DNA of 64,000 nt, from positions 1,920,001 through 1,984,000 of the forward strand of contig OY970355.1 in the NCBI GenBank assembly GCA_963718525.1, in the 5' to 3' direction. The notes below the pieces were generated by a model. The model was not told the DNA's origin and searched no databases. It saw only the letters and a list, made by a program, of their open reading frames with translations. This stretch comes from Candidatus Dormiibacterota bacterium (GTDB taxonomy: Bacteria > Chloroflexota > Dormibacteria > Aeolococcales > Aeolococcaceae). The number at the start of each line of letters is the position of its first letter. Within the stretch, counting starts at the first letter, position 1. Of this stretch, positions 3,783-46,621 are shown in pieces. Made by a program: the position numbers and the translations under genes.

Positions 3783-4119
3783 TCAGGTCAGCGACGTGGC
3801 CGACCAGGGACCGTCGGGCACGATGCGCAGGTGCTCGACCGGGCGGCCAGCGATGAGGTGCTCGGCGATGATCTCGTCGACGTCGTCAACCCTGAGGCGC
3901 CCGTACCAGAACTCCGTCCGGGTAGACGATCAAGATCGGTCCCTGGTGGTGCTGCTGGTTGCAGCCCATCCTCGTGGTGCGCACCCACGTCAGCTCGAGG
4001 CGCTCCACCTCGTCGCGCAGGCGCTGGAGGATGTGCTCGGAACCCTGGCCACCGCAGTGGTGACGCCCGACCGTGGTACAGATGAAGACGTGCAGGTTGC
4101 GTGGCGCGGGATCGCTCAT
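3783..4119 (-). CDS. Thioredoxin-like (2Fe-2S) ferredoxin, with +1 frameshift at ~3910
   Basis: HVFICT...C...RMGC...GPILIVYPDGV, then WYGRLRVDDVDEIIAEHL in the next frame; removing one base at GAACTC 3909-3914 restores a 111-aa ORF. Confidence 0.8.
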
Positions 4120-4184
4120 CACGAGCAATGGTCGCCCACGCGGCCGCGGCTCCGCGCTGTGCCGGCGTGCGAAAGTACCGCACG

Positions 4185-4619
4185 ATGGACTTGAGCTTCG
4201 CCTTCTTCGCGGACAGCGCCGTGGTTCCTCCCGACGGCAAGCTGTATGTCCTCGGCGGCGGTTTCAGTGCCCTCTCGATGGCGACGTTGCCGGGCCGGGC
4301 GGCCTTTGCCGTGGTTGCGGGGTTCCGCTTCAACGCAGCCGATGTGGGTCAGGCGCACCAGGTCGAGCTGCGCCTCACCAACTCCCAGGGCAAGCTCGTG
4401 CTCGCACCGGTTGTGCTGCAGTTCCAGGCGGCCGGCGCGAAGCTGGTGCCGGGCCAGGAGGTGAGCATCTCCACCGTCACCATCCTCCAGCCGATGTTCG
4501 GCGAGCCCGGTGTCTATGCCACCGAATTCTGGACAGGTGGGAACCGCATCGGATCGGTCAGCCTCAGCGTCGAGGAGCGCCAGTTGCCGGAGCCGGTCCC
4601 CGCAGACCGGCCCAACTGA
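4185..4619 (+). CDS. Conserved hypothetical protein (DUF6941-like)
   Basis: FFADSAVVPPDGKLYVLGGG N-terminus; beta-rich; typical codon usage. Confidence 0.65.
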   Translation: MDLSFAFFADSAVVPPDGKLYVLGGGFSALSMATLPGRAAFAVVAGFRFNAADVGQAHQVELRLTNSQGKLVLAPVVLQFQAAGAKLVPGQEVSISTVTILQPMFGEPGVYATEFWTGGNRIGSVSLSVEERQLPEPVPADRPN

Positions 4620-4633
4620 GCACGTCCGCCAGG

Positions 4634-5482
4634 TCAGTACTCGTAGAACCCGCGACCGCTCTTCTTGCCGAGGTAGCCGGCGGCCACCATGCGGCGGAGC
4701 AGCGGGGGAGGTGCGTAATCGCTGTTCGCGTACTCCTCGTAGAGCGATTCGCAGACGAACATCGCCGTGTCGAGGCCGATGTAGTCGAGCAGCTGGAGCG
4801 GTCCCATCGGATGGCCGCAGCCCAGGCGCATCCCCTCGTCGATGTCGTCCCGTGTGGCGAACCCGGATTCGTACACCCTGATCGCGTGGGTGAGGAACGG
4901 GATCAGCAGCAGGTTGACGATGAAGCCGCCGCGATCCTGGGCAACGATGATCCGCTTGCCGAGCCGCTCACCGAGGGCGCGCGTATCCGTCAGGGTGTCG
5001 TCGCTGGTGGCGATGCTGCGCACCACCTCGATGAGCTTCATCACCGGCGCCGGGTTGAAGAAGTGGGTCCCGATCACGCGATCCGGACGCCGGGTTGCGC
5101 GAGCGATCTCGATGATGGGCAGCGCCGAGGTGTTGGTCGAAAGGATCGCGTCGTCGCCGACGATGTGGTCGAGCTGCTCGAAGAGGGCAACCTTCGCCGG
5201 CAGCTGCTCGACGATGGCTTCGATGCAGAAGTCGCATTCCCCGAAGTCCTCGAGGCGCGGCGTGAATGTCAGGAGTCCGTTGATCCGATCGACATCCTCG
5301 TCGGTCAGCTTCCCGGTCCTGCGACCGCGCTCGAGCGACGCGTCGACGCGACGCTCACCGGCCGCGAGCTGCTCGGGTCCGGACTCGGTGACCAGGGTCC
5401 GGATCCCGTTGCGGGCACACACTTCAGCGATTCCCGAGCCCATCAGCCCCGCGCCGATGATCCCAACACACTGGATCTCCAT
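4634..5482 (-). CDS. 3-hydroxybutyryl-CoA / 3-hydroxyacyl-CoA dehydrogenase
   Basis: GIIGAGLMGSGIA, EAIVE, TNTS, GTHFFNP, HPMGP, LGKKSGRGFY; AAGGAG RBS. Confidence 0.93.
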   Translation of the reverse strand: MEIQCVGIIGAGLMGSGIAEVCARNGIRTLVTESGPEQLAAGERRVDASLERGRRTGKLTDEDVDRINGLLTFTPRLEDFGECDFCIEAIVEQLPAKVALFEQLDHIVGDDAILSTNTSALPIIEIARATRRPDRVIGTHFFNPAPVMKLIEVVRSIATSDDTLTDTRALGERLGKRIIVAQDRGGFIVNLLLIPFLTHAIRVYESGFATRDDIDEGMRLGCGHPMGPLQLLDYIGLDTAMFVCESLYEEYANSDYAPPPLLRRMVAAGYLGKKSGRGFYEY

Positions 5483-5582
5483 GGTTGACACTCCTTGAGG
5501 CGCATTCGATGGATCACGGTCGCGCGTTCGCGTGCCGCAGTCTGCCCGAGGGCGGGCGGCTCGCGCACCTATGATGGGCGGC

Positions 5583-5933
5583 ATGGGGTCACCGGGCACG
5601 ATCGCGCTGGTCAGTGACGATCTCATGTTCGCCAGTCAGCTCAGCACCACCATGAAGCGAGCGGGCGGGAGCGCTGTCATCGTCGCCGGTGATCCCGTCC
5701 CGGACGTGGACCTGGTCTTCGTGGACCTCAACACGGCCGTCGAGGCCCGCCTGGCGCTGATCGGTCGCCTGCGCAGCGAGCGCCCCGAGCAGGAGATCAT
5801 CGGCTTCTCGCATCATGGCGACCTCGAGATGCGCCGGCGCGCTCGTGCGGCGGGAGCGAACCGGGTGGTCAACAACGGCTCGATCCAGGTGGTGGCGCTC
5901 CGCCGGTCGGCTGACACCGAGCGAAGCGCGTGA
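5583..5933 (+). CDS. Stand-alone atypical receiver-domain protein
   Basis: LVSDDLMFAS...LVFVDLN...IIGFSHH...AAGA receiver-like pattern. Confidence 0.6.
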   Translation: MGSPGTIALVSDDLMFASQLSTTMKRAGGSAVIVAGDPVPDVDLVFVDLNTAVEARLALIGRLRSERPEQEIIGFSHHGDLEMRRRARAAGANRVVNNGSIQVVALRRSADTERSA

Positions 5934-7126
5934 TGACCGCCGTCACCGAAGGTCTCGACGCTCGCATTCGCTCCGAGGTTGACAGGACGCGCGAGGAGGT
6001 GGTCGAGACGCGGCGCACGCTGCACCGGCATCCCGAGCTGTCACTCGAGGAACGCGACACCGCTGACCTCGTCGCGCAGCGCAGCGCCGGCCTCGGTTTC
6101 ACGGTGCGCACGGGTATCGGTGGGACCGGCGTGCTCGCCGATCTCGACAGTGGCAGGCCGGGTCCGACCCTGATGCTGCGGGCCGACATGGATGCGCTAC
6201 CCATCGTGGAGCGGGGCGACGGTCGCGTGGTCACGTCGGAGGTCGATGGAGTCATGCATGCGTGCGGGCACGACGGCCACGTCGCGATGACGCTCGGAGC
6301 CGCGGCTGCGATGGTCGCGATGCGAGACAGCTGGTCGGGGCGTGTGCGGCTCTGCTTTCAGCCGGCCGAGGAGACCGCGTCCGGCGCGATGCCGATGATC
6401 AAGGACGGGGCTGCCGACGGTGTCGACCGCGTCCTCGGGATTCACCTCTGGGCGCCGCTCGCCACCGGACGTGTTGCAGTCAAGTCTGGCGTTATCTTCG
6501 GGAGCGCCGACAGCTTCTCCGTCACGATCCAGGGCCGTGGAGGTCACGGCGGCATGCCCCATACCGCCATCGACCCGGTGGTCGTCACGGCTCAGGTGAT
6601 CCTCGCAATCCAGTCGATCATCAGCCGCGAGACGTCGCCCTTCTCGCCCGCGGTGATCACCATCGGCAGGGTCACCGCCGGCACCGCGTTCAATGTCATC
6701 GCTGATTCCGCGGAGTTGCTAGGCACCACGCGCGCCATCGATGCGAGCGAGCGCGAACGCCTTCTCAAGCGTGTCGCGGAGATCGCCACAGCGGTGGCGA
6801 GTGGCTACGGCGCCGAGGCGCACTTCTGGCGGGGGAGTGGTTGCCCACCGGTTGTCTCGGACGCCGCGACCGCCGACCTCGTGCGCAGTGCCGCGGCGGC
6901 CACCGTCGGCGACGACCACGTCGACATCGCCGTGCCCATCACGGTCGGCGACGACATCGCCTGCTTCCTCGAACGCGCCCCCGGGTGCTACTTCCTGGTC
7001 GGCGCCGGCCATCCCGAACGGGGGCCCGTACCGCCGCATCACAGCGCGTACTTCGACATCGATGAGGCCGCGCTTCCGGTGGGAGTCGAGACGCTCGTGC
7101 GGGCCGGCCTCGACGTGCTCGGTTGA
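5933..7126 (+). CDS. M20D-family amidohydrolase
   Basis: HRHPELS, RADMDALP, MHACGHDGH, FQPAEE, GRGGHG, PHHS motifs. Confidence 0.93.
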   Translation: MTAVTEGLDARIRSEVDRTREEVVETRRTLHRHPELSLEERDTADLVAQRSAGLGFTVRTGIGGTGVLADLDSGRPGPTLMLRADMDALPIVERGDGRVVTSEVDGVMHACGHDGHVAMTLGAAAAMVAMRDSWSGRVRLCFQPAEETASGAMPMIKDGAADGVDRVLGIHLWAPLATGRVAVKSGVIFGSADSFSVTIQGRGGHGGMPHTAIDPVVVTAQVILAIQSIISRETSPFSPAVITIGRVTAGTAFNVIADSAELLGTTRAIDASERERLLKRVAEIATAVASGYGAEAHFWRGSGCPPVVSDAATADLVRSAAAATVGDDHVDIAVPITVGDDIACFLERAPGCYFLVGAGHPERGPVPPHHSAYFDIDEAALPVGVETLVRAGLDVLG

Positions 7127-7674
7127 TGGACTTCATCCGTTCGCGCGAGGACCGCAACGACCTGTACAGCAACGTGGATCTCACCCCGCGCGCGACATCG
7201 GAGTCCGAGACCCTGCTGTCAATTGCGATGGAGATCGAGCACGCGAACAACTCGGGATACGTGCATGGCGGCACGATCATGCGTCTGGTCGATACCGCGG
7301 CCGGCATCGCCGCGGTGAAGCACGCGAGGCGGCGTGTCGTGACAGCGACCATGGACGAGATGAGCTTTCTCGCCCCGGTGTACATTGGCGACCTGCTCAC
7401 CGTGCGGGCACGGGTCAACGACGCGCACCGCACGTCGATGGAGATCAGCGTCCGCGTCGACGTCGAGCGCATCCCGTCCGGCGAGAAGTTGCATGTGGCA
7501 AGCGCGCACCTCGTCTACGTCGGCCTCGACCGCGACGGCCGTCCTGCGGAGGTCGCCAAGGTCATCGCCGAGACCAAGGAGGAGCGCCGCCGCCAGGCCG
7601 AGGCGCGAGTCCGCCGCGAGCAGCGCCTGCTGCGCAAGCGCGCGCTCGCCGACGCCGTGCACGATGCGGAGTGA
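7126..7674 (+). CDS. Acyl-CoA thioesterase (hotdog fold)
   Basis: HANNSGYVHGGTIMRLVD, VVTA, RTSME motifs. Confidence 0.9.
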   Translation: MDFIRSREDRNDLYSNVDLTPRATSESETLLSIAMEIEHANNSGYVHGGTIMRLVDTAAGIAAVKHARRRVVTATMDEMSFLAPVYIGDLLTVRARVNDAHRTSMEISVRVDVERIPSGEKLHVASAHLVYVGLDRDGRPAEVAKVIAETKEERRRQAEARVRREQRLLRKRALADAVHDAE

Positions 7675-7722
7675 CGGGGATGCTGCCCTCCCGCGCAATC
7701 CCTCGGGTACGATGACCGCGCC

Positions 7723-8472
7723 ATGTCCGAGGTGACCGCACCGCTGACCGTTCGGGACGCCACGGCGCCGACGGCCACCGCGCGTCAGCACATCCGCTTC
7801 GCCTTCCACCGGGTGCGGCCGGAATGGCGTCTCCGGCCCGCCACGGAGCGCGCCGCCGACCGGGAGGAGGTGGCTGCCCTGGTCCGCGACGTCGGTGACC
7901 GCGATGGCGTGCTCATCCGTTCATACAGCACCGTGGGCACACGCGGTGACGCCGATTTCCTGCTCTGGCTGGTCAGCGAACGTCTCGATGATCTGCACGA
8001 GTTCGCCGCGCGGCTGAACCGCACCCGGCTCGCCGCCTACCTCGAGTCTCCCTACAGCTACTTCTCGATGACCAAGCAGAGCATGTACGTCGAGAAGCAC
8101 CGCCACGAGCACCAGGAGGGGAGGAGCAACCGTCTGGTCATCGCGCCCACGGGACGTCGCTATCTCTTCGTCTACCCGTTCGTGAAGACTCGCGCCTGGT
8201 ACCGGCTGAGCCCCGACGAGCGCCAGCGCCAGATGAGCGAGCACATCGCCATGGGGCACAAGTACCCCGGGGTGAAGATCAACACCACCTACTCATTCGG
8301 GCTTGACGATCAGGACTTCGTGGTTGCGTTCGAGAGCGATTCCGTTGCGGATTTTCTCGACCTCGTGCACGAGATGCGTAGCAGCGAGGCATCCACCCAC
8401 ACCGTGCGCGACGTGCCGTCGTTCACATGCATCGCCATGGATATCGACGAGGTGCTGTCAGCGCTCGGTTAG
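7723..8472 (+). CDS. chdC: Chlorite dismutase-family protein, probably coproheme decarboxylase (ChdC/HemQ-like)
   Basis: YPFVKTRAWYRL, MSEHIAMG proximal His, YSFGLDDQDFVVAFE; no distal Arg of true chlorite dismutases. Confidence 0.75.
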   Translation: MSEVTAPLTVRDATAPTATARQHIRFAFHRVRPEWRLRPATERAADREEVAALVRDVGDRDGVLIRSYSTVGTRGDADFLLWLVSERLDDLHEFAARLNRTRLAAYLESPYSYFSMTKQSMYVEKHRHEHQEGRSNRLVIAPTGRRYLFVYPFVKTRAWYRLSPDERQRQMSEHIAMGHKYPGVKINTTYSFGLDDQDFVVAFESDSVADFLDLVHEMRSSEASTHTVRDVPSFTCIAMDIDEVLSALG

Positions 8473-9779
8473 CCCGCGAGCACCGCGCGTCGACGCTCCG
8501 CGGCCTGCAGTGAGGCGAGCATCACCTCCATGATGTGCATCACCTTGACGTTCGGCGCGTAGCGCGCGGCCCCTGCGCGCAGCTGGAGCAGGCACGAGAT
8601 GTTCTCGGTCACCACGATCTCCGCTCCACTGGCGCGGATGTTGTCGAATTTGCGACGGAGGATCGCCTCACTGCGCTCGGGTTGCCGCGCGAAGTACGTC
8701 CCCGCGCCGCCACAGCACATCGCACGCTCGTTCAGCGGGACGACGTCGAGATGGGGGATCTGCTCGAGCAGCCGCCGCATCGCACCTCGCTCGGGTCCGT
8801 CGATCGGCAGCGCGCACGGCTCATCGACGGTGACGCGCCAGCGGAGCGGCCCGAGGGTGCCGCGGACGCCGTTGCGGTCGAGGAAATCACTGGCGAGGGC
8901 TGTGTGATGGGCAATCTCCACCGCGCGATGACCGACCTGGCGATCATCGCCGGCGATGCTCCCATACTCGCGGTAGTGCTCGGTGCATGACGCGGTGTCG
9001 CCGATGTATGCGTCGACGTCGAGGTGGCTCATCGCCGCGCTGTTCTTGACCGCCATGTCCACCATCGCGTCGCGGTCACCGAGGGTGCGCGCCGGCAAAC
9101 CGCTGCAGCCGAGCTGCGGCACCTGGACGCTGTAGCCGGAGCCGAGCAACACCCGGATGGTTGCGTCGGTTGATTCCGGCGCGGTGAGATTCTCGAGGCA
9201 GCAGACCAGCACCGCCACGTTGCCGCGCAGCGGCAGCGTGGGCGCCGGCAGGTCACCGAGCATCTGGTGGACCGTGCGATCCGGCGGGGGACCGCTCTGC
9301 TCGGCGAGCGCGCCGAGGGTACCCAGCCACGACAGCATCCCGGTGCGGCGCGCCAGCCCGTAGAGCCCGGTGCGCCGGGTGAAACGCGCGAACGTGTGGA
9401 GCGCACGCAGCGCACCGGGCCGTGGCAGCACGTTGCGCAGCGCGAAGGACTGGGCCCACGGATACCCCTCCTGCGCATGCAGCTCCTGGCGCGCTCTGCT
9501 GACGATGTGCCCGGTCGGAACGCGCGGCGCGCATGCGGCGACGCAGTTGTCGCAGGTCAGGCAGGTCGACAGCGGGCCGTCGGCGATGTCACGCAGCTCG
9601 AGGCGGCCCTCCATGGCATCGCGAATCAGTGCGATCCGTCCGCGCGCCGTCTCCCATTCCACGGGATTCACGACGTATGCCGGGCACGTGGCCTGACACA
9701 GCGAGCACTTGTTGCATTCGCTCGCCGCCTCGTAGACGTCGGCAAGGAAGCGCGGGGTCGGGACGGCGGCGCCGGCCAT
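8469..9779 (-). CDS. GlcF-like Fe-S oxidoreductase subunit (2x4Fe-4S plus CCG domains)
   Basis: CNKCSLCQATCP and CLTCDNCVAAC ferredoxin motifs; CCGGAGTY. Confidence 0.85.
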   Translation of the reverse strand: MAGAAVPTPRFLADVYEAASECNKCSLCQATCPAYVVNPVEWETARGRIALIRDAMEGRLELRDIADGPLSTCLTCDNCVAACAPRVPTGHIVSRARQELHAQEGYPWAQSFALRNVLPRPGALRALHTFARFTRRTGLYGLARRTGMLSWLGTLGALAEQSGPPPDRTVHQMLGDLPAPTLPLRGNVAVLVCCLENLTAPESTDATIRVLLGSGYSVQVPQLGCSGLPARTLGDRDAMVDMAVKNSAAMSHLDVDAYIGDTASCTEHYREYGSIAGDDRQVGHRAVEIAHHTALASDFLDRNGVRGTLGPLRWRVTVDEPCALPIDGPERGAMRRLLEQIPHLDVVPLNERAMCCGGAGTYFARQPERSEAILRRKFDNIRASGAEIVVTENISCLLQLRAGAARYAPNVKVMHIMEVMLASLQAAERRRAVLAG

Positions 9780-9856
9780 TGGGCCGGGATTGTAGACGAG
9801 ATCGCGAACCGCTCAACCGGCGATGGCGCGGGCCGCCGATCCGTAGAGTTGCGTCG

Positions 9857-11440
9857 ATGATCGCGGACTACCACGTGGAAGCTTTCACGGACGAGGAGCG
9901 GCAGCTGCTCGCCCCGCATGTGACCAATCTCGATCGCCCGGTGTTCGCGCTCACCAATCTTCCGCAGGTCACCGCCGCCGCGCTGTTCGCCCGGTACAGC
10001 CGCAGCTCGAAAAGCCTTCGCCGTCTCCTCGTCGACGAATTCCTTGCCGGGGGCTCGGCGGGCGCGGCAGCATCGGCCGATGCGGGGCGGGAGCGGGCGT
10101 CGGATCTCTTTGGACGTGTGCTCGCCGAATACGGGGACGACTCCGTTGCCCAGCTCGCCGGCGTGCACCTCGCGTGCGAACAGGTCTCCCAACCGCTTGC
10201 CAAGGCGATCGAATGGGGACGGCTCGCCGCCTATTTGGAGCAGTCGACGCGCTACATCCCGTACACGGATCGCCGGGACGGTCACTATCGCTACCTGCGC
10301 GACCGCGAGCTGCTCTCGTCGCCGCTCGGCGCGACCTACTCGAAGGCGATGGACCTGCTCTTCGACACGTACTCGGAGCTGCGCGAGCCACTCGCCCGGC
10401 ACCTCGACGAGACCCTGCCGCCCGAACCGGACGAGAAGGCGCGCCGCCGCGCGATCCGGGCGCTCGCGCTCGACCTGATGCGTGGACTGCTCCCGGCGGG
10501 GACGGTGAGCAACGTTGGGATGTTCGCGTCTCCCCAGGCGTACGAGCAACTCGTGCTCCGCCTTCGTGCGCACCCGCTGCCCGAGGCGCGCGCATATGCC
10601 GAGCTGATCAACGCGGAACTGCAGAAGCTCATCCCTGAGTTCCTGACGCGTCTCGATCGCCCCGACCGAGGTGCTGTGTGGGTCGCATACCTGCGCGAAA
10701 CGGCTGCCGCGCTCGCTCACCAGGCAGACGCGCTCTCCCCGGAGGGCGAATGGGGGCCCACCGGCGTGACGCTGGTGGAGTGGGACGGCGACGGCGAGGA
10801 CCGGATCCTCGCCTCAGCGCTCTTCCCGTACTCACACGCGTCGCAGGAACGGCTGCTGGCTGCGGTACGTCCGCTCTCGGATGCTCGGCGCCAGGCGCTC
10901 TTCGCGGCCGCCGTCGGGCATCGCGGCAATCGCCGCCATCGCCCCGGCCGTGGGTTCGAGCACTGTGACTACACCTTCGAGGTCGTCTCCGACTACGGCG
11001 CTTTCCGCGACCTGCAGCGCCACCGCATGCTCACGATCCAGTGGCAGGAGCTGACGCCGTCGCTGGGGTACGAGGTCCCCGATGCGGTCGTCGATGCCGG
11101 GCTCGCCGAACGCTGGCATGTCGCCGTCCGGGAGGCAGAGGCCGCGTATCGCGAGATCGCCGACACGTTCCCGCAGCAGGCCGGCTACCTGGTCACGCTC
11201 GGCCACCGCGTGCGATACGTGATCAAGCTCAACGCACGCGAGGCGATGCACATGATCGAGCTGCGCACGTCGCCGCAGGGCCATCCGAGCTACCGGCAGA
11301 TCTGCAAGGAGATGCTCCGTCTCATCGATGAGGTCGCCGGTCACCATCTGATAGCGAGGGCGGTTCGTTTTGTGGGATTGGACGACGTCCACCTGCCGCG
11401 ATACGCTGCCGAGGCCGCGAGCACGTCAACGGCTGACTGA
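9857..11440 (+). CDS. thyX: FAD-dependent thymidylate synthase, tandem two-domain form
   Basis: LFARYSRS, YGDDSVAQL, EQSTRY, FRDLQRHR, IELRTSPQGH motifs; 527 aa. Confidence 0.88.
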   Translation: MIADYHVEAFTDEERQLLAPHVTNLDRPVFALTNLPQVTAAALFARYSRSSKSLRRLLVDEFLAGGSAGAAASADAGRERASDLFGRVLAEYGDDSVAQLAGVHLACEQVSQPLAKAIEWGRLAAYLEQSTRYIPYTDRRDGHYRYLRDRELLSSPLGATYSKAMDLLFDTYSELREPLARHLDETLPPEPDEKARRRAIRALALDLMRGLLPAGTVSNVGMFASPQAYEQLVLRLRAHPLPEARAYAELINAELQKLIPEFLTRLDRPDRGAVWVAYLRETAAALAHQADALSPEGEWGPTGVTLVEWDGDGEDRILASALFPYSHASQERLLAAVRPLSDARRQALFAAAVGHRGNRRHRPGRGFEHCDYTFEVVSDYGAFRDLQRHRMLTIQWQELTPSLGYEVPDAVVDAGLAERWHVAVREAEAAYREIADTFPQQAGYLVTLGHRVRYVIKLNAREAMHMIELRTSPQGHPSYRQICKEMLRLIDEVAGHHLIARAVRFVGLDDVHLPRYAAEAASTSTAD

Positions 11441-11496
11441 GCACCCGGGCCGAGGAACGGCCGTCCACGGCCGGTACAGCATGTCAATCTGACGTC

Positions 11497-12387
11497 GTGA
11501 AGCGCCGCGTGACATCGATCGCCGGATGGGCAACACACACATATCCTGGACGGCTCATCGCCGCATTCGGCTCGAGCCAGGCGGGCAACTATGCGTCGGG
11601 TCTGGCGTTCAACGCGTTCCTCAGCATGTTCCCGCTCATCCTCGGGTTGCTCGCGATCCTCGGCTTCGCGACGCAGTCACCTGACGCCAAGATGAAGGTC
11701 CTCGACGCGATTCTCGGGTTCTTCCCGCAAACAGCCCATGCGGAGCTGGTGGCCACGTTCACCGGTGTCCAGCAGCATTCGGGGCTGCTCGGCATCGTCA
11801 GCCTGGTGGGCCTCCTATGGGGCGGCAGCAGCCTCTTCACTGGGATGGAGTTCGCGCTGAGCGTGATCATCGGTGGCCGCCAGCGCAGCTTTCTACGGCA
11901 GCGAGGCATGGCGCTGGCCATGACCATCCTGTTCGTCGTCGCCCTGGTCGCCACCGTCGGCATCAATTCGATCGTCGCGATTCCTGGAGTCATCTGGATC
12001 TTTGAGCCGGTGGTCGGCCTGCTGGTGTGGTGCGGGTTCATGCTCGCGGTGTACCGGCTGGTCCCCAACCGCACCCACCGGGTGTCGGAAACCTGGCCCG
12101 GCGTGGTCATCGCCGGGACCGCGATGGAGATCCTCACGCTGCTGTGGCCCCTGTACGGACGCCTTTCCCACAACTTTTCGACGTATGGCTCGACCTTCGC
12201 CCTGTTCTTCGTGCTCGCCAGCTGGCTGTACTTCCTGGCTCAGTTCATCCTGCTCGGCGCCGTCGCCAACCGCATGCACGCCGGCGAGCCGGATGCTCGC
12301 GGCCTTCTCGGCGAACGGCCGGCCAGTCGACAGAAGGTCGCAGAAGCGTCTCGGACCGGTGGCGAGGTTTCCCGGACGGGGGCGTGA
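11497..12387 (+). CDS. YihY/virulence factor BrkB-family membrane protein
   Basis: ASGLAFNAFLSMFPLIL, YRLVPNR, YGSTFA...WLYFLAQFILLGA. Confidence 0.88.
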   Translation: MKRRVTSIAGWATHTYPGRLIAAFGSSQAGNYASGLAFNAFLSMFPLILGLLAILGFATQSPDAKMKVLDAILGFFPQTAHAELVATFTGVQQHSGLLGIVSLVGLLWGGSSLFTGMEFALSVIIGGRQRSFLRQRGMALAMTILFVVALVATVGINSIVAIPGVIWIFEPVVGLLVWCGFMLAVYRLVPNRTHRVSETWPGVVIAGTAMEILTLLWPLYGRLSHNFSTYGSTFALFFVLASWLYFLAQFILLGAVANRMHAGEPDARGLLGERPASRQKVAEASRTGGEVSRTGA

Positions 12388-12405
12388 CGTATGATTGGGA
12401 GCACC

Positions 12406-12795
12406 ATGGCAATCACCTCTCCCTCGATCGTCACGATCTCCGACACCGCCCGTGAGCAGCTCAAGGGTCTCATCGCCGACCAGCCTGCCGACCGCGCACT
12501 CGGACTTCGGGTCTTCATCCAGTCTGGTGGATGCTCAGGCTTCTCGTACGGCATGGGCCTGGATGAGAATCCACCCCGCGACGACGACCAGGTTGTCGAC
12601 GTCGATGGAGGCATCAAGGTGTATGTGGATGCGTACTCGTCGCAGTACCTCCAGGGCGCCGAGATCGATTACGTCGACGAGCTGATGGGTGGCGGATTCA
12701 CCATCCACAATCCCAACGCCGTTCGCACTTGCGGTTGTGGTCACTCGTTCCAGACTGCAGACTCCGCGGGCGAAGCCAAGTCCTGCTCCCACTGA
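12406..12795 (+). CDS. A-type Fe-S cluster carrier (IscA/ErpA/SufA family)
   Basis: GGCSGFSY and NPNAVRTCGCGHSF motifs. Confidence 0.93.
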   Translation: MAITSPSIVTISDTAREQLKGLIADQPADRALGLRVFIQSGGCSGFSYGMGLDENPPRDDDQVVDVDGGIKVYVDAYSSQYLQGAEIDYVDELMGGGFTIHNPNAVRTCGCGHSFQTADSAGEAKSCSH

Positions 12796-12839
12796 GGGAG
12801 TTCTGACCGGCGGCTGGCCGGCGCTGCATCCGTCTGGGC

Positions 12840-14803: not shown

Positions 14804-14815
14804 GGAATTTCGACC

Positions 14816-37630: not shown

Positions 37631-37635
37631 CGGCC

Positions 37636-39363
37636 GTGACCGATACCGTAGGCGTCACCGACCAGGCTGCAGCGCCGAAGGCGAAGATCGGCTACCGCGC
37701 CCTCTTCCGCAATCGCGACTATCGCTTCCTCTACTCGGGGCTCGCGATCTCGATGAGCGGTTCGTGGGCATACAACGTCGGCCTGGTGGTGTTCGTCTTC
37801 AACGCCACGCATTCGCCTGCCTGGGTGGCCGCGGCGTCGATGACCCGGTTTCTCTGCGCGCTCGTTGCCAGTCCCTTCGGCGGATTGATCGCCGACCGGA
37901 TAGAGCGCATGCGGTTGATGGTGACGCTCGACTCCATCTCGACGGTGCTCCAAGCCGCCCTCGCCGTCGTCGCAGTGTTGAATGGGCCGGTCATCATCGC
38001 CATTGTTCTCGCGGCGCTGACGTCGGTCACCGGCTCTTCGTACGACCCGGCGGCTCGGGCTGCAACGCCGGTCATCGTGGGCGAGGAGTACCTGGCGGCT
38101 GCCAACAGCGCGCAGTCGGCCGTGGAGAACCTCTCCGTGATCGTCGGTCCCGCGATTGCAGGCGTGCTCCTCCTGTTCACCCCGCCGGCGACCGTCTTCG
38201 GGATCAACGCCGCCTCCTTCGCGCTGTCTGCGTTGCTGGTGTCTCGCATACGTGTCAAGAGCCGCCCCGCCGACATCACCGAGGGAGGCACCGTCAGTCC
38301 GCTCAAGCAGATGGCGGGCGGCATCGCCGCATTCTTCGATTCGCCCACCGTGATGCTGCTCGCCGGGTTCAGCATCCTTGCGAGTTTCGTCTACGGCACC
38401 GACACCGTGCTGTTCGTCGTGATCAGCCGTGACCAACTCGGCACCGGGAGCGCCGGGTACGGCTACCTGCTGGCGGCGCTCGGCGTTGGCGGCATCCTGA
38501 TCGCTGGCTTCATGAATCGCATCGCTGCCGCCCGGCAACTCGGAGCGATCATCGTCGCCGGCATGGCGGTGTACTGCCTGCCCACCGCATTGCTGACGAT
38601 CGTGCATGCACCGTGGGTCGCGTTTCTCCTCGAGGTCGTCCGCGGTGCGGGGACCATCGTTGTCGACGTCCTTGCGATCACCGCCTTGCAGCGTCTGGTC
38701 AAGCCGGATGTGGTCGCGCGCGTCTTCGGCGTGTTCTTTGCGCTCGTGCTCGCGGCGATCGCGCTCGGCGCGCTGCTCATGCCGATCCTGCTCGGCACTG
38801 TGGGGTTGGCCACGACGCTGCTGATCATGGGATTCGCGATACCTGCACTCACCGCCGCGTCGTATCCGTGGCTCCGCACCCTCGACACTCGGGCGCTCAG
38901 TGAGCTGTCCGCTATCGAGCCGATCGTTGCCAGGCTCCAGGCGCTCGACATCTTTGCCGGTGCCACCCGCGCCGCGTTGGAGAACATCGCTCGGTCTGCG
39001 GTGGAGGAGTCCATTGCACCCGGGAGCGTCCTCATTCGCGAGGGCGCCGAAGCGGATGACTTCTTCGTGCTGACCTCGGGTCAGGTGTCGGTGAGCGCCG
39101 CGGGCGAGTCCGGTGTCGAGCGCTCGCTGGGCAAGCTCGAGCCGCCGAATTACTTCGGCGAGATCGGACTTCTGGAGCACCGGCCGAGGACAGCCACGGT
39201 GACGACGATCACCCCATGCACCGTGCTACGTATCAACGGCACCACGTTCGTGGATGCTCTGACCCACACTCCGCTTGCGCCCAGCGCGCTCGGCGGCGTG
39301 CAGATGCGGCTCGCGCGGACACATCCGTCGGTGAAGATGACCTTCGGGCAGAACGGCGAGTAG
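37636..39363 (+). CDS. MFS transporter with C-terminal cyclic-nucleotide-binding domain
   Basis: FRNRDYR, GGLIADR, about 12 TM; C-terminal IREGAEADDFFVL...FGEIGLLEHRPRTATV. Confidence 0.88.
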   Translation: MTDTVGVTDQAAAPKAKIGYRALFRNRDYRFLYSGLAISMSGSWAYNVGLVVFVFNATHSPAWVAAASMTRFLCALVASPFGGLIADRIERMRLMVTLDSISTVLQAALAVVAVLNGPVIIAIVLAALTSVTGSSYDPAARAATPVIVGEEYLAAANSAQSAVENLSVIVGPAIAGVLLLFTPPATVFGINAASFALSALLVSRIRVKSRPADITEGGTVSPLKQMAGGIAAFFDSPTVMLLAGFSILASFVYGTDTVLFVVISRDQLGTGSAGYGYLLAALGVGGILIAGFMNRIAAARQLGAIIVAGMAVYCLPTALLTIVHAPWVAFLLEVVRGAGTIVVDVLAITALQRLVKPDVVARVFGVFFALVLAAIALGALLMPILLGTVGLATTLLIMGFAIPALTAASYPWLRTLDTRALSELSAIEPIVARLQALDIFAGATRAALENIARSAVEESIAPGSVLIREGAEADDFFVLTSGQVSVSAAGESGVERSLGKLEPPNYFGEIGLLEHRPRTATVTTITPCTVLRINGTTFVDALTHTPLAPSALGGVQMRLARTHPSVKMTFGQNGE

Positions 39364-39397
39364 CAACGATTCCATGTGGCGAGGTGACAATCCACCT

Positions 39398-40264
39398 GTG
39401 CACATCGGCGTCGTCTACCCGCAGACGGAGCTCGGTGGAGACCCCGCCGCGGTTCGGCAGATCGGAAGGGCGGTGGAGGACCTTGGGTTCACCCACCTGC
39501 TCGCCTACGACCACGTGCTCGGTGCCGTTCACGCCGATCGTTCGCCTCAGCTGACGGGGCCGTACACCGAGCACGACCCCTTTCACGACCCGTTCGTGAT
39601 GTTCGCCTTTCTGGCGGCCATCACCAAGCGAATCGGCTTCACGACTGGAGTCCTCATCCTTCCGCAGCGTCAGACAGCTCTTGTCGCGCGCCAGGCCGCC
39701 GATGTCGACCTCCTCTCGGGCGGCCGGCTACGACTTGGCGTCGGCATCGGCTGGAACCCGGTCGAGTACGAGGCGCTCGGGCAGGACTTCCACACCCGCG
39801 GCTCACGTCAGGAGGAGCAGATCACCCTGCTCCGCCGGCTTTTCAGCGAGCCTGTCGTTGAATTCTCGGGTCGCTTCGACCGAGTTGACAGAGCGGCTCT
39901 CGTGCCGAAGCCGACGAGGTCGATACCGATCTGGCTCGGTGGATCCAGCGAGGCCGCGTTCGACCGTGCCGCCCGCCTCGCGGACGGCTTCATCTTCATC
40001 GGCGGTGACATCGACCGCAGCCTCGAGGCGTGGAGGCGGCTGCGAGAACGAATTCGCGGCCACGGCAGGTCGGTTGACGATTTTGGCGGGGAATATGTGG
40101 TCCGTCCTCGCAGCGGCATTGACGGCCTCAAAGCGGACATCGACGTCTGGCGCGAGGCGGGTGGTTCTCATGTCTCGGTGGTCACCATGGGCATGGGCCT
40201 GGAGTTGATCGACTCCCACGTTGACTACCTGGCGAAGGTGGCGGAGGGACTGGACTTGGCGTGA
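39398..40264 (+). CDS. LLM-class (probably F420-dependent) oxidoreductase
   Basis: AYDHVLG, HDPFV, LILPQRQ, LSGGRLRLGVGIGWN, RAARLADG. Confidence 0.88.
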   Translation: MHIGVVYPQTELGGDPAAVRQIGRAVEDLGFTHLLAYDHVLGAVHADRSPQLTGPYTEHDPFHDPFVMFAFLAAITKRIGFTTGVLILPQRQTALVARQAADVDLLSGGRLRLGVGIGWNPVEYEALGQDFHTRGSRQEEQITLLRRLFSEPVVEFSGRFDRVDRAALVPKPTRSIPIWLGGSSEAAFDRAARLADGFIFIGGDIDRSLEAWRRLRERIRGHGRSVDDFGGEYVVRPRSGIDGLKADIDVWREAGGSHVSVVTMGMGLELIDSHVDYLAKVAEGLDLA

Positions 40265-40443
40265 GCACAGCGCACGCACGAGTGCGGGGAGAAATGGGTC
40301 AGTATGCTGCCTGCACCGGCTCGTCTCTCTCATCGTCGTCGTGCGCGCTGACTGCGGCCAGCAGCACTGGATCCGCGAAATCGAACCCGGCGTGTAGGAG
40401 GAGATCCTCACGGAGTTTCCATCGATCCCAGGAGTGCAAATAT

Positions 40444-41004
40444 ATGACCACCATGAGCCGGCCCGCAGGAGCGCCAACCATTCGCTTTGACGCCACGCTG
40501 TACACGATCGATACATCGACTCTCGTGCGCTTGCCTGAGACCGCGAGCAGGAAACTGCCGTCGCGCGGGCAGGTGGCCGTGAAGGGAACGATCAATGGCC
40601 ATGGGTTTCACGCGGTGTTGGAACCAGACGGCTCGTTTGGCCACTGGATGCGGATTGATCGAAAGCTACAAAAAACTGCTGCCATACGGACGGGTGACAC
40701 CGCAACACTCGAAATTCAGTTGCTCAAAGACTGGCCGGAGCCGAAGGTGCCACAGGATCTCGAGACAGCGCTGGCAGCTGCCCCTCAGAAGATCCAGGAT
40801 CTCTGGACCACTATTACTCCGATGGCGCGCTGGGAATGGGTTCGATGGGTCAACGCAACCTCAAACCCCGATACGCGCAAACGACGGGTCGAAGTGAGCA
40901 TCTCGAAAATGCAAAGCGGGAAGAGGCGGCCCTGTTGTTTCAACCTTGCCGCATGTACCGACCCGAACCTGTCCAAAAATAGCAAGCTCATTGACCCGGC
41001 GTGA
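40444..41004 (+). CDS. DUF1905 + YdeI/OmdA-family protein
   Basis: LPSRGQVAVKGTING, VPQDLETAL, WEWVRWV...TRKRRV. Confidence 0.8.
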   Translation: MTTMSRPAGAPTIRFDATLYTIDTSTLVRLPETASRKLPSRGQVAVKGTINGHGFHAVLEPDGSFGHWMRIDRKLQKTAAIRTGDTATLEIQLLKDWPEPKVPQDLETALAAAPQKIQDLWTTITPMARWEWVRWVNATSNPDTRKRRVEVSISKMQSGKRRPCCFNLAACTDPNLSKNSKLIDPA

Positions 41005-41153
41005 TCTGTCCGGGTAACACCGCGGTTCGGTAATTCCCGAGCCGAACTCGCTCACCCGAGCTGGCAGTCGCGTTCGCAACATCAACTGAACACAAGCTGC
41101 TCGGAGTGGCACGCGCAAGCACACAATCGAGGCCACCCGCTCCCCTCCATCTC

Positions 41154-41206
41154 AGTATATCAGCGCACCCGGGACTTGCGGCAAGCGCGGGGGCGTGCTG
41201 CAGAAT
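41154..41206. promoter_or_regulatory. RAE-like palindrome with overlapping divergent promoters
   Basis: GGGACTTGCGGCAAGCGCG at 41171-41189; plus strand TTGCGG-N19-CAGAAT; minus strand TTGCCG-N19-TATACT. Confidence 0.7.
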
Positions 41207-41346
41207 CGCTGGCCGAGACCAAGAATCTCCAGCACTGGGAGGCTCGACGTGCGGATGTTGTTGTCGATGGACGGGGCGCGCGCTGACGTCGAACCAATGG
41301 TGGGGCTCGCGGTTCACCTGCTGACGAATGGCCGGGAGGTGCAAGT

Positions 41347-42789
41347 ATGAGCAAGCACGCAGTGGTGATCGCCGGAGGCGGTCCGACGGGAATGATGCTG
41401 GCGGCAGAGCTGACATTGGCGGGGACCGACGTCGTCATCGTCGAGCGGCGCGCCGGCTTCGAGCTGGAGAGCTCGCGCTCGCGAGGTCTGCACTCTCGCA
41501 CCATCGAAGTACTCGATCAGCGTGGCGTGGTTGATCGATTTCTCGCCGAGGGAAGGACAGCACAGGTGCAGGCATTCGGTGGAGTCCCGATGGACATAAG
41601 CGATTTCCCCACGCGCCACAACTACGGTATGGCGCTGTTGCAGAGCCACTTCGAGCGCATCATGTCGGGCTGGTTGGATGAGCTCGGCGTTCCCATCCTG
41701 CGCGAGCGCGAGGTGACCGGTTTCACGCAGGACGGCGGCGTCGTCGACGTTGCGCTCTCCGAGGGCACACCGCTGCGGGCGCAATATTTGGTGGGTTGCG
41801 ACGGGGGCCGCAGCGTTGTGCGCAAGGCGGCAGGCATCGATTTCGCGGGCTGGGATCCAACCACGTGCTGGATCATCGCCGAGGTCGAGATGGAGGAGCA
41901 GCCGGAATTCGGCCTGCGTGGCGGCGGCGGTATCGGTCCGGCGGAAGAAGGCCGCGTCGGCGTCACCCTGATCGAACCGGACGTGAACCCCACGGAGGAG
42001 CCCACGCTGGAGGATCTCCGCGCGGCGCTCATCCGCGTCGACGGAACGGACCACGGCGCGCACAACCCGCGCTTCATCTCTCGCTTTACCGACATGACGC
42101 GTCAGGCAGTGACCTATCGCAGCGGCCGCGTGCTGGTTGCGGGAGACGCGGCACACGTGCACGCCCCGATGGGAGGTCAGGGGTTGAACATCGGTGTGCA
42201 GGATGCGGTGAACCTGGGCTGGAAGCTGGCGCAGGTGGTCAACGGCACCTCACCCGCGAGCCTCCTGGACACGTATCACGCCGAACGTCACCCGGTTGGT
42301 GCGCGGGTGCTGCGGAACACCATGGCGCAGAGGGCACTCGGCGCATCGGACGACCGGTCCGTCGCGTTGCGCGACATGGTGGTGGACCTGCTGCGCATGG
42401 ACGAGCCACGCAGGCACATCGCCGCCATGATCGCTGGCCTCGACGTTGCGTATGACCTCGGCGACGGACATCCGCTCTTGGGGCGCCGCATGCCCGACCT
42501 CGATCTGGCGACTGCCGACGGTACCGTGCGAGTGTTCTCGTTGTTGCACGACACCAAGCCGGTGCTGCTGAACCTCGCTGACGCCGGCGGACTCGACATC
42601 GCAGCGTGGGCCGATGGAGTTCAGCTCGTCGATGCCTCGTATGCCGGCACGTGGGAGCTTCCGGTCATCGGCGAGGTCGGTGCACCGACCGCAGTGTTGG
42701 TGCGTCCCGATGGACACGTCGCCTGGGTTGGCGATGGCACTGATACTGGATTGCGGGACGCGCTGACTCGCTGGTTCGGATCACGGTGA
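41347..42789 (+). CDS. Class A FAD-dependent monooxygenase, rifamycin monooxygenase (Rox)-like
   Basis: GGGPTG, GCDGGRS, SRFTDMTRQA, GDAAHVHAPMGGQGLN, LLDTYHAERHPV, GHPLLGRRMPD, RPDGHVAW; GGGAGG RBS. Confidence 0.85.
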   Translation: MSKHAVVIAGGGPTGMMLAAELTLAGTDVVIVERRAGFELESSRSRGLHSRTIEVLDQRGVVDRFLAEGRTAQVQAFGGVPMDISDFPTRHNYGMALLQSHFERIMSGWLDELGVPILREREVTGFTQDGGVVDVALSEGTPLRAQYLVGCDGGRSVVRKAAGIDFAGWDPTTCWIIAEVEMEEQPEFGLRGGGGIGPAEEGRVGVTLIEPDVNPTEEPTLEDLRAALIRVDGTDHGAHNPRFISRFTDMTRQAVTYRSGRVLVAGDAAHVHAPMGGQGLNIGVQDAVNLGWKLAQVVNGTSPASLLDTYHAERHPVGARVLRNTMAQRALGASDDRSVALRDMVVDLLRMDEPRRHIAAMIAGLDVAYDLGDGHPLLGRRMPDLDLATADGTVRVFSLLHDTKPVLLNLADAGGLDIAAWADGVQLVDASYAGTWELPVIGEVGAPTAVLVRPDGHVAWVGDGTDTGLRDALTRWFGSR

Positions 42790-42918
42790 CGCGCCGGCTG
42801 GTGTGATTGCATCAGTGGGAGTCGGTATGAACGCATCTCGCGGATGGAGAGATGGTGGGTGAGCATGTGATCAGCGCCTCAATAGACAGCACGGCGCACA
42901 TATGGAGACGGATGGGGT

Positions 42919-43533
42919 ATGAATCAGAACACCTCGATCAGAGCGGCTCGGCGTCACTCGATACACATGGCGACTGGCATCGGCGCCGTTGGCGCATTCA
43001 TCATCTTCGGATCCATTCCGGCCGCCGCAGCCAGCGGAACACAGGTCGTGACCGGGTCAACATCGGGTGGCGTGCTCAGCATCTCCGCGCCGGGTGCGCT
43101 CACCCTGCCAACGCTGGTTGCCGGCAGCTCGACTGCGGCGACCAACCTCGGCAGTCTGAGCTGGACAGATACGATGAACGACGCGCTGGTCTCGAGTGTC
43201 ACCTTCGCCGCGACGAACCTGTGGCACGCAGCGGGGGCCGGCCTGTACATCCCGTGGGGAGATTTCACGATCACAGTCGACCCAACGCCCAGCCCCAATG
43301 CGATGAACACCGGTGCGGCAGCGGTGGTGCCGCCGGGGAGCCCGTACGTGCTCGCCGGAACCCCGACCACTGACTTCGGCACCTATTCCACGCCGATCAC
43401 CCTTGCCACCGCATCGGCGACGAGCGAGGGCACCTGGACCATGGCAACCAATCAGATCGTCGTCGCAGTCCCCGCGAACACGACGCCCGCCACGACCTTC
43501 ACGGCGACGCTCCAGTACAGCGTCACCGGGTAG
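42919..43533 (+). CDS. Secreted WxL-like cell-surface protein
   Basis: Signal peptide, Thr/Ala-rich beta protein ending VPANTT...FTATLQYSVTG; followed by a DUF916 gene. Confidence 0.6.
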   Translation: MNQNTSIRAARRHSIHMATGIGAVGAFIIFGSIPAAAASGTQVVTGSTSGGVLSISAPGALTLPTLVAGSSTAATNLGSLSWTDTMNDALVSSVTFAATNLWHAAGAGLYIPWGDFTITVDPTPSPNAMNTGAAAVVPPGSPYVLAGTPTTDFGTYSTPITLATASATSEGTWTMATNQIVVAVPANTTPATTFTATLQYSVTG

Positions 43534-43753
43534 TCCCCCCATCGACCCCCACCCCCAAGGTGCCGGGCGATCGATCAGTCCCAACTGCACGGTCGTCCGG
43601 CCCTCCTCGCTCGCAAGCGGCAATCGGCGGGGTGACATGCGCTCCGCCTGGCTCATCCTGAGACATTCCGTCACAACTTGCCCTGCTTCGTGCCCCTTCG
43701 TGACGGCGAGGGCCGGGCAAGCGGGGTAGGCTCAGATCCGTTCCAAGGAAGAG

Positions 43754-44815
43754 ATGAGAAGCGAGCCATTCGTCCGGCCCACTACTACAGGACGCCTTCG
43801 CGCGGTGTTGATGCTCGGGAGCATCATCGCGGTGACGGCGCTCACTGTAAGGTCGCAGGAGACTGTGCATGCGGTCACAGCGTCGCCGGCCACGGCTCCG
43901 GCGCAACTCTTCGGCGTCCATCCCGTTCAGGAAGGGCGCACGACGCTGCCGGGAGGGCACTTCAACTTCGCGCTCGTGCCGGGGCAGCGCATCTCTGACG
44001 GAATCGTGGTGGAGAATTTCTCCAATCACATCCTGCATTTTCACGTGTACGGGGCAGATCTCCTCACGGCAACGGGCGGCGGCCAAACTCCCGCGCAGCC
44101 AACCGCTAAGATGCACGCGGTTGGCGCATGGATCGCTGTTTCGGTGACGACAATTGCCGTCGCCGCACACAGCCAGGCCACCGACACGTTCACGCTGACG
44201 GTACCCATCGTGGTTTCGTCCGGCCAGCATCTCGGGGCTGTCGTGGCGGCGGCCAGTGTTGGTGTGACACCGCAAGGGAATCCGATCGAGGCGCGCGCGG
44301 CGTTGATCGCAGTGGTCACCGTGCCCGGCGTCGCTCGCTCATCGGCAGGTCTCACGCCGTTGGTCGGATCGGCTGCCACGGCGGGACAGGTTGGGTTTGG
44401 CATCACGATCTCGAACAGCGGTAACGTGCTGCTGACGTACGCGGGCGTGCTCGTGATCGACGATGCCGCCGGGCATCGTCTCGCCACCCTTCAGCTCACC
44501 CCCACCAACACATATGTCGTACCGAGCGGTCACGTACCACTCGCCGCGATCTGGAGGGAACCTGCTGAGCTGGCTGCAATGTACCGAGCTCAAGCCGTCG
44601 TCACCGTTTTCGACAACGGACAACGAGTTCGTACGCTGACCTCGCAATCCATCGCTCTGCGGTTGTCACCCAGTGTTCCGGCGTTTGTCCCCGTCGGTCT
44701 TGGCATGGCGCTGGCGGCGATGATCCTTCTCGCGGTGTGGATCGTGCGTCGTGTCGCAGGACGGCGCGACAGCACGGTCGCGCGACATCGCCGACTTGGG
44801 ATCGGCAGCCCATGA
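43754..44815 (+). CDS. DUF916/DUF3324 (WxL-interacting) protein with C-terminal TM anchor
   Basis: FALVPGQRISDGIVVEN, VYGAD, VGAWI, FTLTVP...GQHLGA, NSGNVLL, TM followed by RR. Confidence 0.75.
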   Translation: MRSEPFVRPTTTGRLRAVLMLGSIIAVTALTVRSQETVHAVTASPATAPAQLFGVHPVQEGRTTLPGGHFNFALVPGQRISDGIVVENFSNHILHFHVYGADLLTATGGGQTPAQPTAKMHAVGAWIAVSVTTIAVAAHSQATDTFTLTVPIVVSSGQHLGAVVAAASVGVTPQGNPIEARAALIAVVTVPGVARSSAGLTPLVGSAATAGQVGFGITISNSGNVLLTYAGVLVIDDAAGHRLATLQLTPTNTYVVPSGHVPLAAIWREPAELAAMYRAQAVVTVFDNGQRVRTLTSQSIALRLSPSVPAFVPVGLGMALAAMILLAVWIVRRVAGRRDSTVARHRRLGIGSP

Positions 44816-46621
44816 TCCAAACCACTTCGATTGAGAGAGGCGCTCGAGTCACCTCGAACTCGACGACCCGATGGCGGTGCGCACGCAGCCACGGCGAGGC
44901 TTGACCGTCCGACGGTGCTTGTTGTCGATGACAACTCGGGGATGCGCGATGCGGCCGAGCGCATCCTGAAACGGGCCCGCTACCGAGTTGTGCAGGCGGC
45001 AAGCGCCGGAGAGGCGCGGTTAGCGTGGATTGCACACCACCCCGAGGTCGCACTTGTCGATCTCGAGCTCGGTGGCGAATCGGGATCGGTGCTGCTCGAC
45101 GAGACGTGGGTGCGAGATCTCGACACCGCCATCGTCGTGTTCACCGGATCGGACGACGTCGACGTGGCGAACCAATCCTTTGAAAACGGGGCCTCGGGTT
45201 ACGTGGTCAAGCCGTTCACACCCAACGAACTCCTCATGCAGGTCAGCAGTGCGCTGCGCCGCCGTCATCTCGAGCGGGCGGTCGCAGACCACGTGCGGGA
45301 GCTCGAGCGCAAGGTCATCGAGAGCGCGACGGGCATCAGCGACCTGAGGAGGCGCCTGGAGACCGCGACGTCGGGATCGCTCGACGACGAGCAACTCGTA
45401 CAACATCTGTGCTCTGCGGTGTGCCTTCGCGACGGTGACCTTGGCCGCCACATCGAGCGAGTGAGCGTGACCGCGGCGGCGCTCGCTGACTGGTGCGGAT
45501 TTGTGGTCGATCCCGCGCCCGCCATTCGCCTCGCTGCGGCGCTCCACGACGTCGGCAAGATCGGCATCCCTGACTGGGTGCTGCTCAAGCCGGGACGGCT
45601 GACCCCCGACGAGCGGACGATCATCGAGCGGCATTGCGAGCTGGGTCACGCGCTGTTGAGCGGCTCGAGCAGCCCCATCCTGGTTCTTGCGGCGTCGGTA
45701 GCGCTCAATCACCATGAACGTTGGGACGGCAACGGGTATCCGAACCGCCGCAGCGGTGACGACATACCCCTTGAAGCGCGCATCACCGCGGTGGCGGATG
45801 TCTTTGACGCGCTCACCCGCGACCGCGTGTATCGAGCGGCCCTTCCCGTTGACACGGCGATCGACGTCATGCTCCGCGATCGAGGCGGCCTCTTCGATCC
45901 GAGGCTGCTGGATCTCTTCCTTGATCGTCTTGACGACGTATTGGATCTGACGAAGACGCTTCCCGATCTTGAGGTCGCGCGTGTCACGCGCCTTGTCATC
46001 GCCGGCGATGAGCCCGTTCTCGTCGAAGGTTTGTTCCGCCTGATGAACCGGAGAGGCGAGACGCGTGTGATCGGGAGCGGACAGACGTGGGATGAGGCGC
46101 TGGAAGCCGTCCGAAGCCTCCGTCCTGACGTGTTGCTGGCCGACTACCGGCTGCCCGGCGGTGACGCCGCAGCCTTGACCGAGGTCGTGCTCGCTGAGCA
46201 TCCCGAGACCAAGGTGATCGTGCGCATTGACACCACGGCGCAGGAGGCCGCACTGCGATGCGTCGCGGCTGGGTGCTCGGGAGTGATCTCCAAGACCGCA
46301 CCGGTGGATGACGTTGCGAGGGCGATTCGGCGTGTCCATGACGGCGAGTTGGTGATCCCTGCCGAACTGCTCCCCCAGGTGGTTTCGGGGCTGCGTCGCA
46401 TGGGACACCGTGTCGGGGAAGACATGACGCGTCGAGAGAGCGAGCTGCTGGGACATCTGGCACGCGGCCTCTCGCTGATTGACATCGCGTCGGCCATGTC
46501 CATCAGCATGAACACCGCACGCAACCACACACAACGCGTGATCGAGAAGTTGGGTGCGCACTCCAAGCTCGAGGCCGTCGTCATCGCCATGCGGGAGGGA
46601 CTGGACGTGGCACCGAAATGA
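44812..46621 (+). CDS. REC-HD-GYP-REC-LuxR HTH fusion protein
   Basis: VLVVDD...VDL...KPF; LHDVGKIG, HHERWDGNGYP, ADVFDAL; LLADYRLPG; TRRESELL...TARNH HTH. Start is either TTG 44831 or ATG 44812 with a +1 error at ~44857. Confidence 0.85.

Follow-up and report, generated by a model that had tools for sequence, protein, structure and literature searches.

The window analysed here is a stretch of 64,000 nucleotides (nt) from contig OY970355.1 (forward-strand positions 1,920,001 to 1,984,000; GenBank assembly GCA_963718525.1) of a Candidatus Dormiibacterota bacterium, a soil bacterium whose genome (G000) is a single 3.34-Mb contig, 88.9% complete. The close homologues of one core gene mostly lie in records titled Candidatus Dormibacterota or Dormibacteria. 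The initial annotation had pointed to six GAACTC/GAGTTC hexamers in the window at which a surplus A or T disturbs a reading frame, and all six were located exactly where it placed them. As independent data we used contigs (Logan) from five public runs of three studies (X1, X2, X3, X5, and X20), aligned to 3500-23499 and 27000-46999, i.e., 40 of the 64 kb; runs X6 to X19, with small word shares, were excluded. The sites and the genes that hold them are as follows.

About 3783-4119, (-) strand: broken small gene of about 111 amino acids, which we take to be ferredoxin-like by its motif
3909-3914, (-) strand: hexamer with extra base 3910 in a true GACTC; base missing in X1, X2, and X20, X5 without cover
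20524-22061, (+) strand: PMT_2-family membrane glycosyltransferase gene, 511 amino acids without errors 21353 and 21795
21350-21355, (+) strand: hexamer with extra T 21353 in a true GAGTC; missing in X1, X2, X5, and X20
21794-21799, (+) strand: hexamer with extra A 21795 in a true GACTC; missing in X1, X2, X5, and X20
22058-23297, (+) strand: PMT_2/DUF2142 gene, 412 amino acids once error 22824 is corrected
22823-22828, (+) strand: hexamer with extra A 22824 in a true GACTC; missing in X1, X2, X5, and X20
33066-36663, (+) strand: zinc-ribbon/cyclase/AAA/TPR gene, 1198 amino acids once error 34550 is corrected
34549-34554, (+) strand: hexamer with extra A 34550 in a true GACTC; missing in X1, X2, X3, and X5
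44812 (ATG) to 46621, (+) strand: receiver/HD/LuxR gene, its ATG in frame without base 44857
44856-44861, (+) strand: hexamer with extra A 44857 in a true GACTC; missing in X1, X2, and X3, X5 without cover

The extra bases were absent from the contigs of every covering run, and base 34550 was also missing in congeners. In every run the dropped base was one of the two like letters, A or T, which makes GACTC/GAGTC the true word and rules out a parent word GAATC with an inserted C or G. As the initial annotation had predicted, dropping one A or T restores the frames, which then read through GVWY in the small gene and RVDW, YDSW, FDSF, and AGLVP in the others, and brings the ATG at 44812 into frame. 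Because covering run contigs lack all six extra bases, the window genes are intact, which the initial annotation had considered probable, and the six bases are assembly errors. All runs compared were contig sets, whose library types we deduced from an adapter tail on one contig and from the titles of records. The tail, 15 bases at the end of one X2 contig, is presumably a transposase-library adapter and would thus mark amplified short-read DNA.

The only indels in 27000-46999 were those at 34550 and 44857. Among the rows listed for 3500-23499 (8 further indel rows and 644 further substitution rows exist), the other indels, at 8379/8382, 9827/9833, 10055, and 18524/18529, occurred in some runs only or in contigs at 90% likeness. 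We also called frameshifts blind to the motif, using a dicodon model trained on G000 and a gene-finding Viterbi algorithm with frameshift states. In the window the caller placed +1 shifts at 21337, 21803, 22829, and 34545, with one at 3915 appearing only under a laxer penalty; the site at 44856, near a gene start, gave no call. Its sole other call in the window, a -1 at 37281, was bridged by X1 without a gap, so that the statement that all frameshifts fall on the motif holds over the compared 40 kb. Adjoining this call, at 37283-37288, the contigs of X2 and X3 are interrupted or rejoined, X3 having 135 different letters there; X1 runs through the place, and a structural variant in the population is the probable cause. 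The hexamer as such is no sign of error: the window contains 54 GAACTC/GAGTTC and 71 GACTC/GAGTC words, and 16 of the 18 GAACTC/GAGTTC words in 27000-46999 were genuine and unchanged in the runs.

Insertions are the rarer of two error classes, the commoner one, the substitution of GACTC by AACTC, having been missed by the initial annotation. In 27000-46999 the closest run, X1, differed from the assembly at only 12 places, comprising 2 insertions and 10 substitutions, all within true GASTC, a word that makes up 0.8% of the bases there. The substitutions known from the runs are the following.

27190, 30292, 32534, 38537, 44086, 44933, and 45393: A for G in the assembly, restored to GACTC/GAGTC in X1
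36083, 40206, and 44989: T for C in the assembly, restored to GACTC/GAGTC in X1
4380, 19625, and 21933: GACTC read as AACTC, at least three such cases among the rows listed for 3500-23499

All 13 read-supported substitutions were of the G-to-A/C-to-T class, and 9 of the 12 gene-borne ones checked (modelled genes) changed a residue. In 27000-46999, 12 of 33 true GASTC sites (36%) were wrong, compared with 0 of 36 GAATC/GATTC sites. Flanks matter in both classes: 11 of the 13 substitutions were preceded by C, and 44 of 57 modelled GAACTC insertions in G000 were followed by G. Genome-wide, the share of A in C[A/G]ACTC was 0.54 in G000 and 0.46-0.52 in four congeners, versus 0.26 in short-read-titled relatives, which corresponds to a CAACTC excess of about 1,100 sites in G000 over a small baseline (284 words) taken from other genes. 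The mirror error, GAGTC to AAGTC, showed a weaker A share (0.26 versus 0.17). Markov k-mer ratios alone (GACTC, 0.83; AACTC, 1.24) were suggestive and confounded by codon usage, and we did not rely on them.

Across G000, the motif-blind caller returned 143 +1 and 130 -1 calls. GAACTC/GAGTTC lay within 15 nt of 46 of the +1 calls (2.2 expected; p = 2e-47) and GAAGTC/GACTTC within 15 nt of 13 (2.2 expected), and no motif was found near the 130 -1 calls. Under a laxer penalty the counts were 69 versus 12.4 expected for GAACTC and 16 versus 10.3 expected for GAAGTC. Of the classifiable GAACTC sites, 38 of 995 appeared shifted, 19 in sense and 19 in antisense orientation, and among classified sites in the same genome none of 390 GAAATC or 217 GAATTC sites was; random places, as a control, were shifted in 49 of 9,646 cases. 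Both the enrichment at GASTC over GAWTC that had been proposed as a check and the claim that the effect sits at the DNA level rather than in the ribosome, given that both orientations are hit, were borne out by these counts. The errors were not spatially clustered (9 gaps below 5 kb versus 6.8 expected; p = 0.23); the window's six exceed the genome average, as expected of a window that had been flagged for them.

The same signature recurs in relatives. In few-contig genomes of four congeners, sampled over 396-400 kb each, GAACTC occurred at 7 of 63 (G003), 13 of 122 (G006), 16 of 71 (G008), and 16 of 35 (G012) +1 calls, with 0.5-2.1 expected. In two other genera of the family it occurred at 4 of 8 (G348) and 2 of 9 (G223) calls (0.1 expected; 100 kb each). 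All six few-contig relatives sampled, in three genera of this Dormibacteria family, were thus positive; the sample leaves out G206 and G354, family genomes with both of the methyltransferases described below. We also grouped 52 loci from a homologue search by record title into 26 short-read-assembler loci (212 kb) and 15 long-contig loci (132 kb), leaving out 4 that overlapped sampled contigs and 7 distant ones. The motif was present at 5 of 14 +1 calls in the long-contig loci and at 0 of 3 in the short-read-titled loci. The errors recur across the family and are absent from short-read-type data.

We infer a modification from the error pattern, and it is very likely that base modification at GASTC causes the errors. 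The initial annotation had suggested a modified GASTC or GANTC motif; the errors fit the former and not the latter, GAWTC showing neither errors nor shifts. G000 itself fits a native-nanopore assembly by its single contig and its error spectrum (the platform is not on record). Native DNA would carry a methyl mark in GACTC/GAGTC that is misread by the long-read basecaller: the mark would shift the pore signal at the G-A step, and G-mA would be read either as AA, giving a substitution, or as GAA, giving an insertion. GASTC would be marked on both strands and its misreading would depend on context; such a scheme fits an error that is found often at GACTC and less often at GAGTC. The modified base is somewhat more likely to be N6-methyladenine (m6A) than N4-methylcytosine (m4C) on the opposite strand's last C, two marks that an assembly would record identically. 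The literature describes similar errors. Methylated motifs lead to strand-specific nanopore miscalls (PMC11610603), RA/TY is the minimal shared core of nanopore methylation errors, which are mostly purine or pyrimidine confusions (PMC11610573), and on R10 the prevailing error close to methylated sites is G-to-A (10.64898/2026.01.14.699587). In agrobacteria, GANTC is where errors in assemblies accumulate (PMC12710330), and such errors also occur at this word in Brucella (PMC12392509).

Given a family-wide footprint, the writer of the mark must be a conserved enzyme. G000 encodes two beta-class methyltransferases, L001 and L002, 2.9 kb apart. The L002-type gene (G000:C1:974048-974869) encodes a full-length PF01555 protein of about 258 amino acids in which D-P-x-Y (DPAY) and DPF-G are invariant among 32 aligned homologues. 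Motif IV precedes motif I and the predicted fold is beta-class, which together mark it as a beta-class amino-methyltransferase. In an alignment-based model (predicted local distance difference test [pLDDT] score, 74.4) the top fold match was CcrM (E = 3.5e-16), followed closely by M.BceJIV and an m4C methylase from a rotifer; a single-sequence fold (pLDDT, 34.6) was not used. The L002 type was present in 55 of 63 family genomes and in 0 of 187 genomes of the class's other four families, whereas the L001 type was present in 59 of 63 and 30 of 187, respectively (both tallies count the unpublished G364 among the 63). In four few-contig genomes with L001 only (800 kb), 0 of 33 +1 calls lay at the motif, compared with a pooled 58 of 308 in the six positive genomes (p = 0.003 by Fisher's test, which overstates the significance, as related genomes are not independent samples). 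To our reading, the neighbours of L002 look metabolic and none is nuclease-like; no nuclease family search was made. The best 120 of 1,749 matches to L002 named no characterised close homologue. The search for a methyltransferase advised in the initial annotation thus yielded a candidate, whose role as writer we favor by a narrow margin. Taken as a whole, we have good confidence in the combination of errors confined to GACTC/GAGTC, a likely methyl mark, and a likely writer in a family-wide solitary beta-class methyltransferase. More tentatively, slightly short of an even call, the family may hold a CcrM-like, vertically inherited GASTC mark made by an undescribed solitary DPAY methyltransferase and readable from assemblies by comparing footprint with gene presence.

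L002-type genes can themselves look like pseudogenes through errors at their own GASTC. The conserved D-D-P-E-S-Y stretch of the gene contains a GASTC word, and in several long-contig records among the homologues L181:4310, L186:4313, L182, and L154 the insertion or the substitution falls on this word. Further L002-type homologues with 59-63% identity (L184:4001-4684, L187, and L189) occur in records labelled as other than Dormibacteria, a Woesebacteria and a Proteobacteria record, and these may reflect transfer or misbinning.

Several observations weigh against the attribution to an m6A mark written by L002. With respect to the enzyme, its motif IV is DPAY rather than the usual DPPY, and m4C enzymes came almost level with CcrM among the fold matches (rank 5, E = 4e-15). 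With respect to distribution, all six positives carry both L001 and L002, the genomes listed included no few-contig one that has L002 without L001 or lacks both, and any other family-restricted gene would fit the same pattern. The contrast with L001-only genomes leans on G396, which is the sole clearly indel-prone one and contributed 27 of the 33 calls, the other three giving 1-3 calls each and possibly having been polished or sequenced on another platform. The L001 homologue of G396 is only 55% identical and may differ in specificity, and the A-share test told nothing in G297 and G396, where shares of 0.45-0.47 went together with high values for the control words. With respect to the motif, the 12 of 33 wrong sites and the C-preceded bias leave room for a longer or context-bound motif, and no GAGTC-to-AAGTC error was found among 8 candidate sites in 27000-46999, making the second strand statistical only. 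A synonymous codon-pair test put the conversion at about 10%, no more than the scatter seen in other contexts, and was dropped as an estimate of conversion.

The strongest competing explanation keeps the GASTC mark but assigns it to the L001-type beta methyltransferase (DPPF), or to both enzymes, one per strand. L001 has a canonical motif IV, is found in all six positives and most of the family, and across the genus keeps a distance of about 2.9 kb to L002; the lack of motif-linked calls in the four genomes with L001 and without L002, including same-family G195 (69% identical), makes this assignment unlikely, though not negligible. A weakness of the basecaller or polisher in the GACTC context, independent of any modification, would agree with the strong flank dependence and with a G/A confusion bias that is also seen in amplified DNA (10.64898/2026.01.14.699587). 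It is nonetheless improbable, as the indel-prone G396 is rich in GACTC (2.1 per kb) and none of its 27 +1 calls fell on the motif (p of about 0.004 under the pooled rate), and an error at 36% of sites is far above the unmodified background in the same study. G396 (L217 to L226) also showed CCAAG/CTTGG near 8 of its 27 +1 calls, where 2.0 were expected; this may be a further error tied to a motif, weak after multiple testing.

We consider it just as improbable that GASTC carries a nonmethyl modification, such as a phosphorothioate or hypermodified base, or is C5-methylated by an enzyme outside our searches. Insertions are not the error class stressed in the literature, and basecallers would presumably model unusual marks poorly, which speaks for this idea. 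Against it, the type I N6, PglX, and DndC families were not found in G000 at its 88.9% completeness, nor was MT-A70, for which the control search matched nowhere; a PF07669 match was below the cut-off. The Dnd phosphorothioate target is GAAC/GTTC, and the true sequence here, GACTC, is without GAAC, so with no dndC found the pattern does not fit Dnd (Ssp genes were not searched). The C5 family is patchy, being present in 5 of 18 congeners and not found in the signature-positive G003. Its member in G000, L003:1009-3626 (G000:C1:1038213-1042241), is a single-frame fusion of a C5 methylase to Vsr; in back-to-back orientation beside it lies an HNH-type nuclease with a weak match to a phosphorothioate-DNA restriction family. 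Another gene of G000, L004:1-2004, encodes a DUF1156 adenine-methylase-like protein downstream of a helicase-like gene; it was not found in the five signature-positive relatives searched (5 of 5), and the region is likely a sporadic defence island. Real insertions, whether by a sequence-specific mutational process, phase variation, or programmed ribosomal frameshifting, can hardly be credited, even though the strain that was assembled might in principle not be the one in the runs, since long X1 contigs match the assembly at other bases over 20 kb and yet lack the insertions, both orientations are hit equally, and the pattern tracks assembly type across species.

With a GASTC mark and an L002-type writer as the preferred reading, the phenomenon belongs to a known kind, the methylation-linked long-read error. 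It shares with the published nanopore cases (PMC11610573, PMC11610603, 10.64898/2026.01.14.699587, and PMC12710330) a short motif, G-to-A/C-to-T changes, an RA/TY core, and absence from short reads. Unlike those cases, it affects GASTC without GAWTC, leaves about a third of the checked sites wrong, breaks dozens of genes through its frequent +1 insertions, and occurs in uncultured Dormibacteria. In the supplement of PMC12710330, GANTC appears 92 times and none of GASTC, GACTC, and GAGTC appears. New here is the candidate writer, a solitary beta-class methyltransferase; no published report of a GASTC/GAGTC mark or of a methylome in Dormibacteria was found, bioRxiv supplements and curated enzyme databases being outside coverage. 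L002 resembles CcrM (GANTC m6A in Alphaproteobacteria; PDB 6PBD) and M.BceJIV (8URK) in fold and motif order, and apparently in lineage-wide conservation and, to our reading, the lack of a nuclease-like neighbour. It differs from these enzymes in sequence (25-27% identity), length (about 258 versus 350 amino acids), and motif IV (DPAY), leaves no footprint at GAWTC, and scores 76.3 bits against a cut-off of 830 for the CcrM family (NCBIfam NF050803). The zero counts for errors and shifts at GAWTC thus give no sign of a GANTC specificity, a lack of errors not proving a lack of marks.

M.MlyI-type methyltransferases are D12-class enzymes. The only PF02086 (D12) match in G000, at 23 bits, lies inside the DUF1156 protein, so G000 shows no MlyI/PleI-type system in this search, which did not include the nuclease. 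M.MlyI, of a type IIS system, does target GASTC (PMC4081073), and such enzymes share with our candidate the use of one enzyme for the quasi-palindrome; they are companions of a GAGTC-cutting nuclease and sporadic, in contrast to the family-wide distribution seen here. Homology-based GASTC predictions can err (PMC6700114).

For the window itself the result is negative: the pattern is real and, as a gene defect, empty, with intact genes and nothing unusual in the cell. Long-read genomes of the family carry false frameshifts by the dozen (in G000, 57-69 of the +1 calls are linked to the motif) and, judged from the CAACTC excess over its small baseline, about a thousand false substitutions. Such errors would mimic pseudogenes, lower completeness estimates, and distort trees. 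The combination of a family-wide mark and a solitary, conserved methyltransferase suggests that the methylome has a housekeeping or regulatory function, and the analysis yields one testable motif-enzyme pair as well as a warning for the annotation of genomes of this family. Besides the protein-coding genes, the window has a tRNA gene at 51156-51228 on the (-) strand, the only Rfam element found in it. Elsewhere among the genomes searched, the 3.4-Mb G183 (L195, L200, and L204) stood out by a large expansion of the N6/N4 methyltransferase family, with 57 matches.

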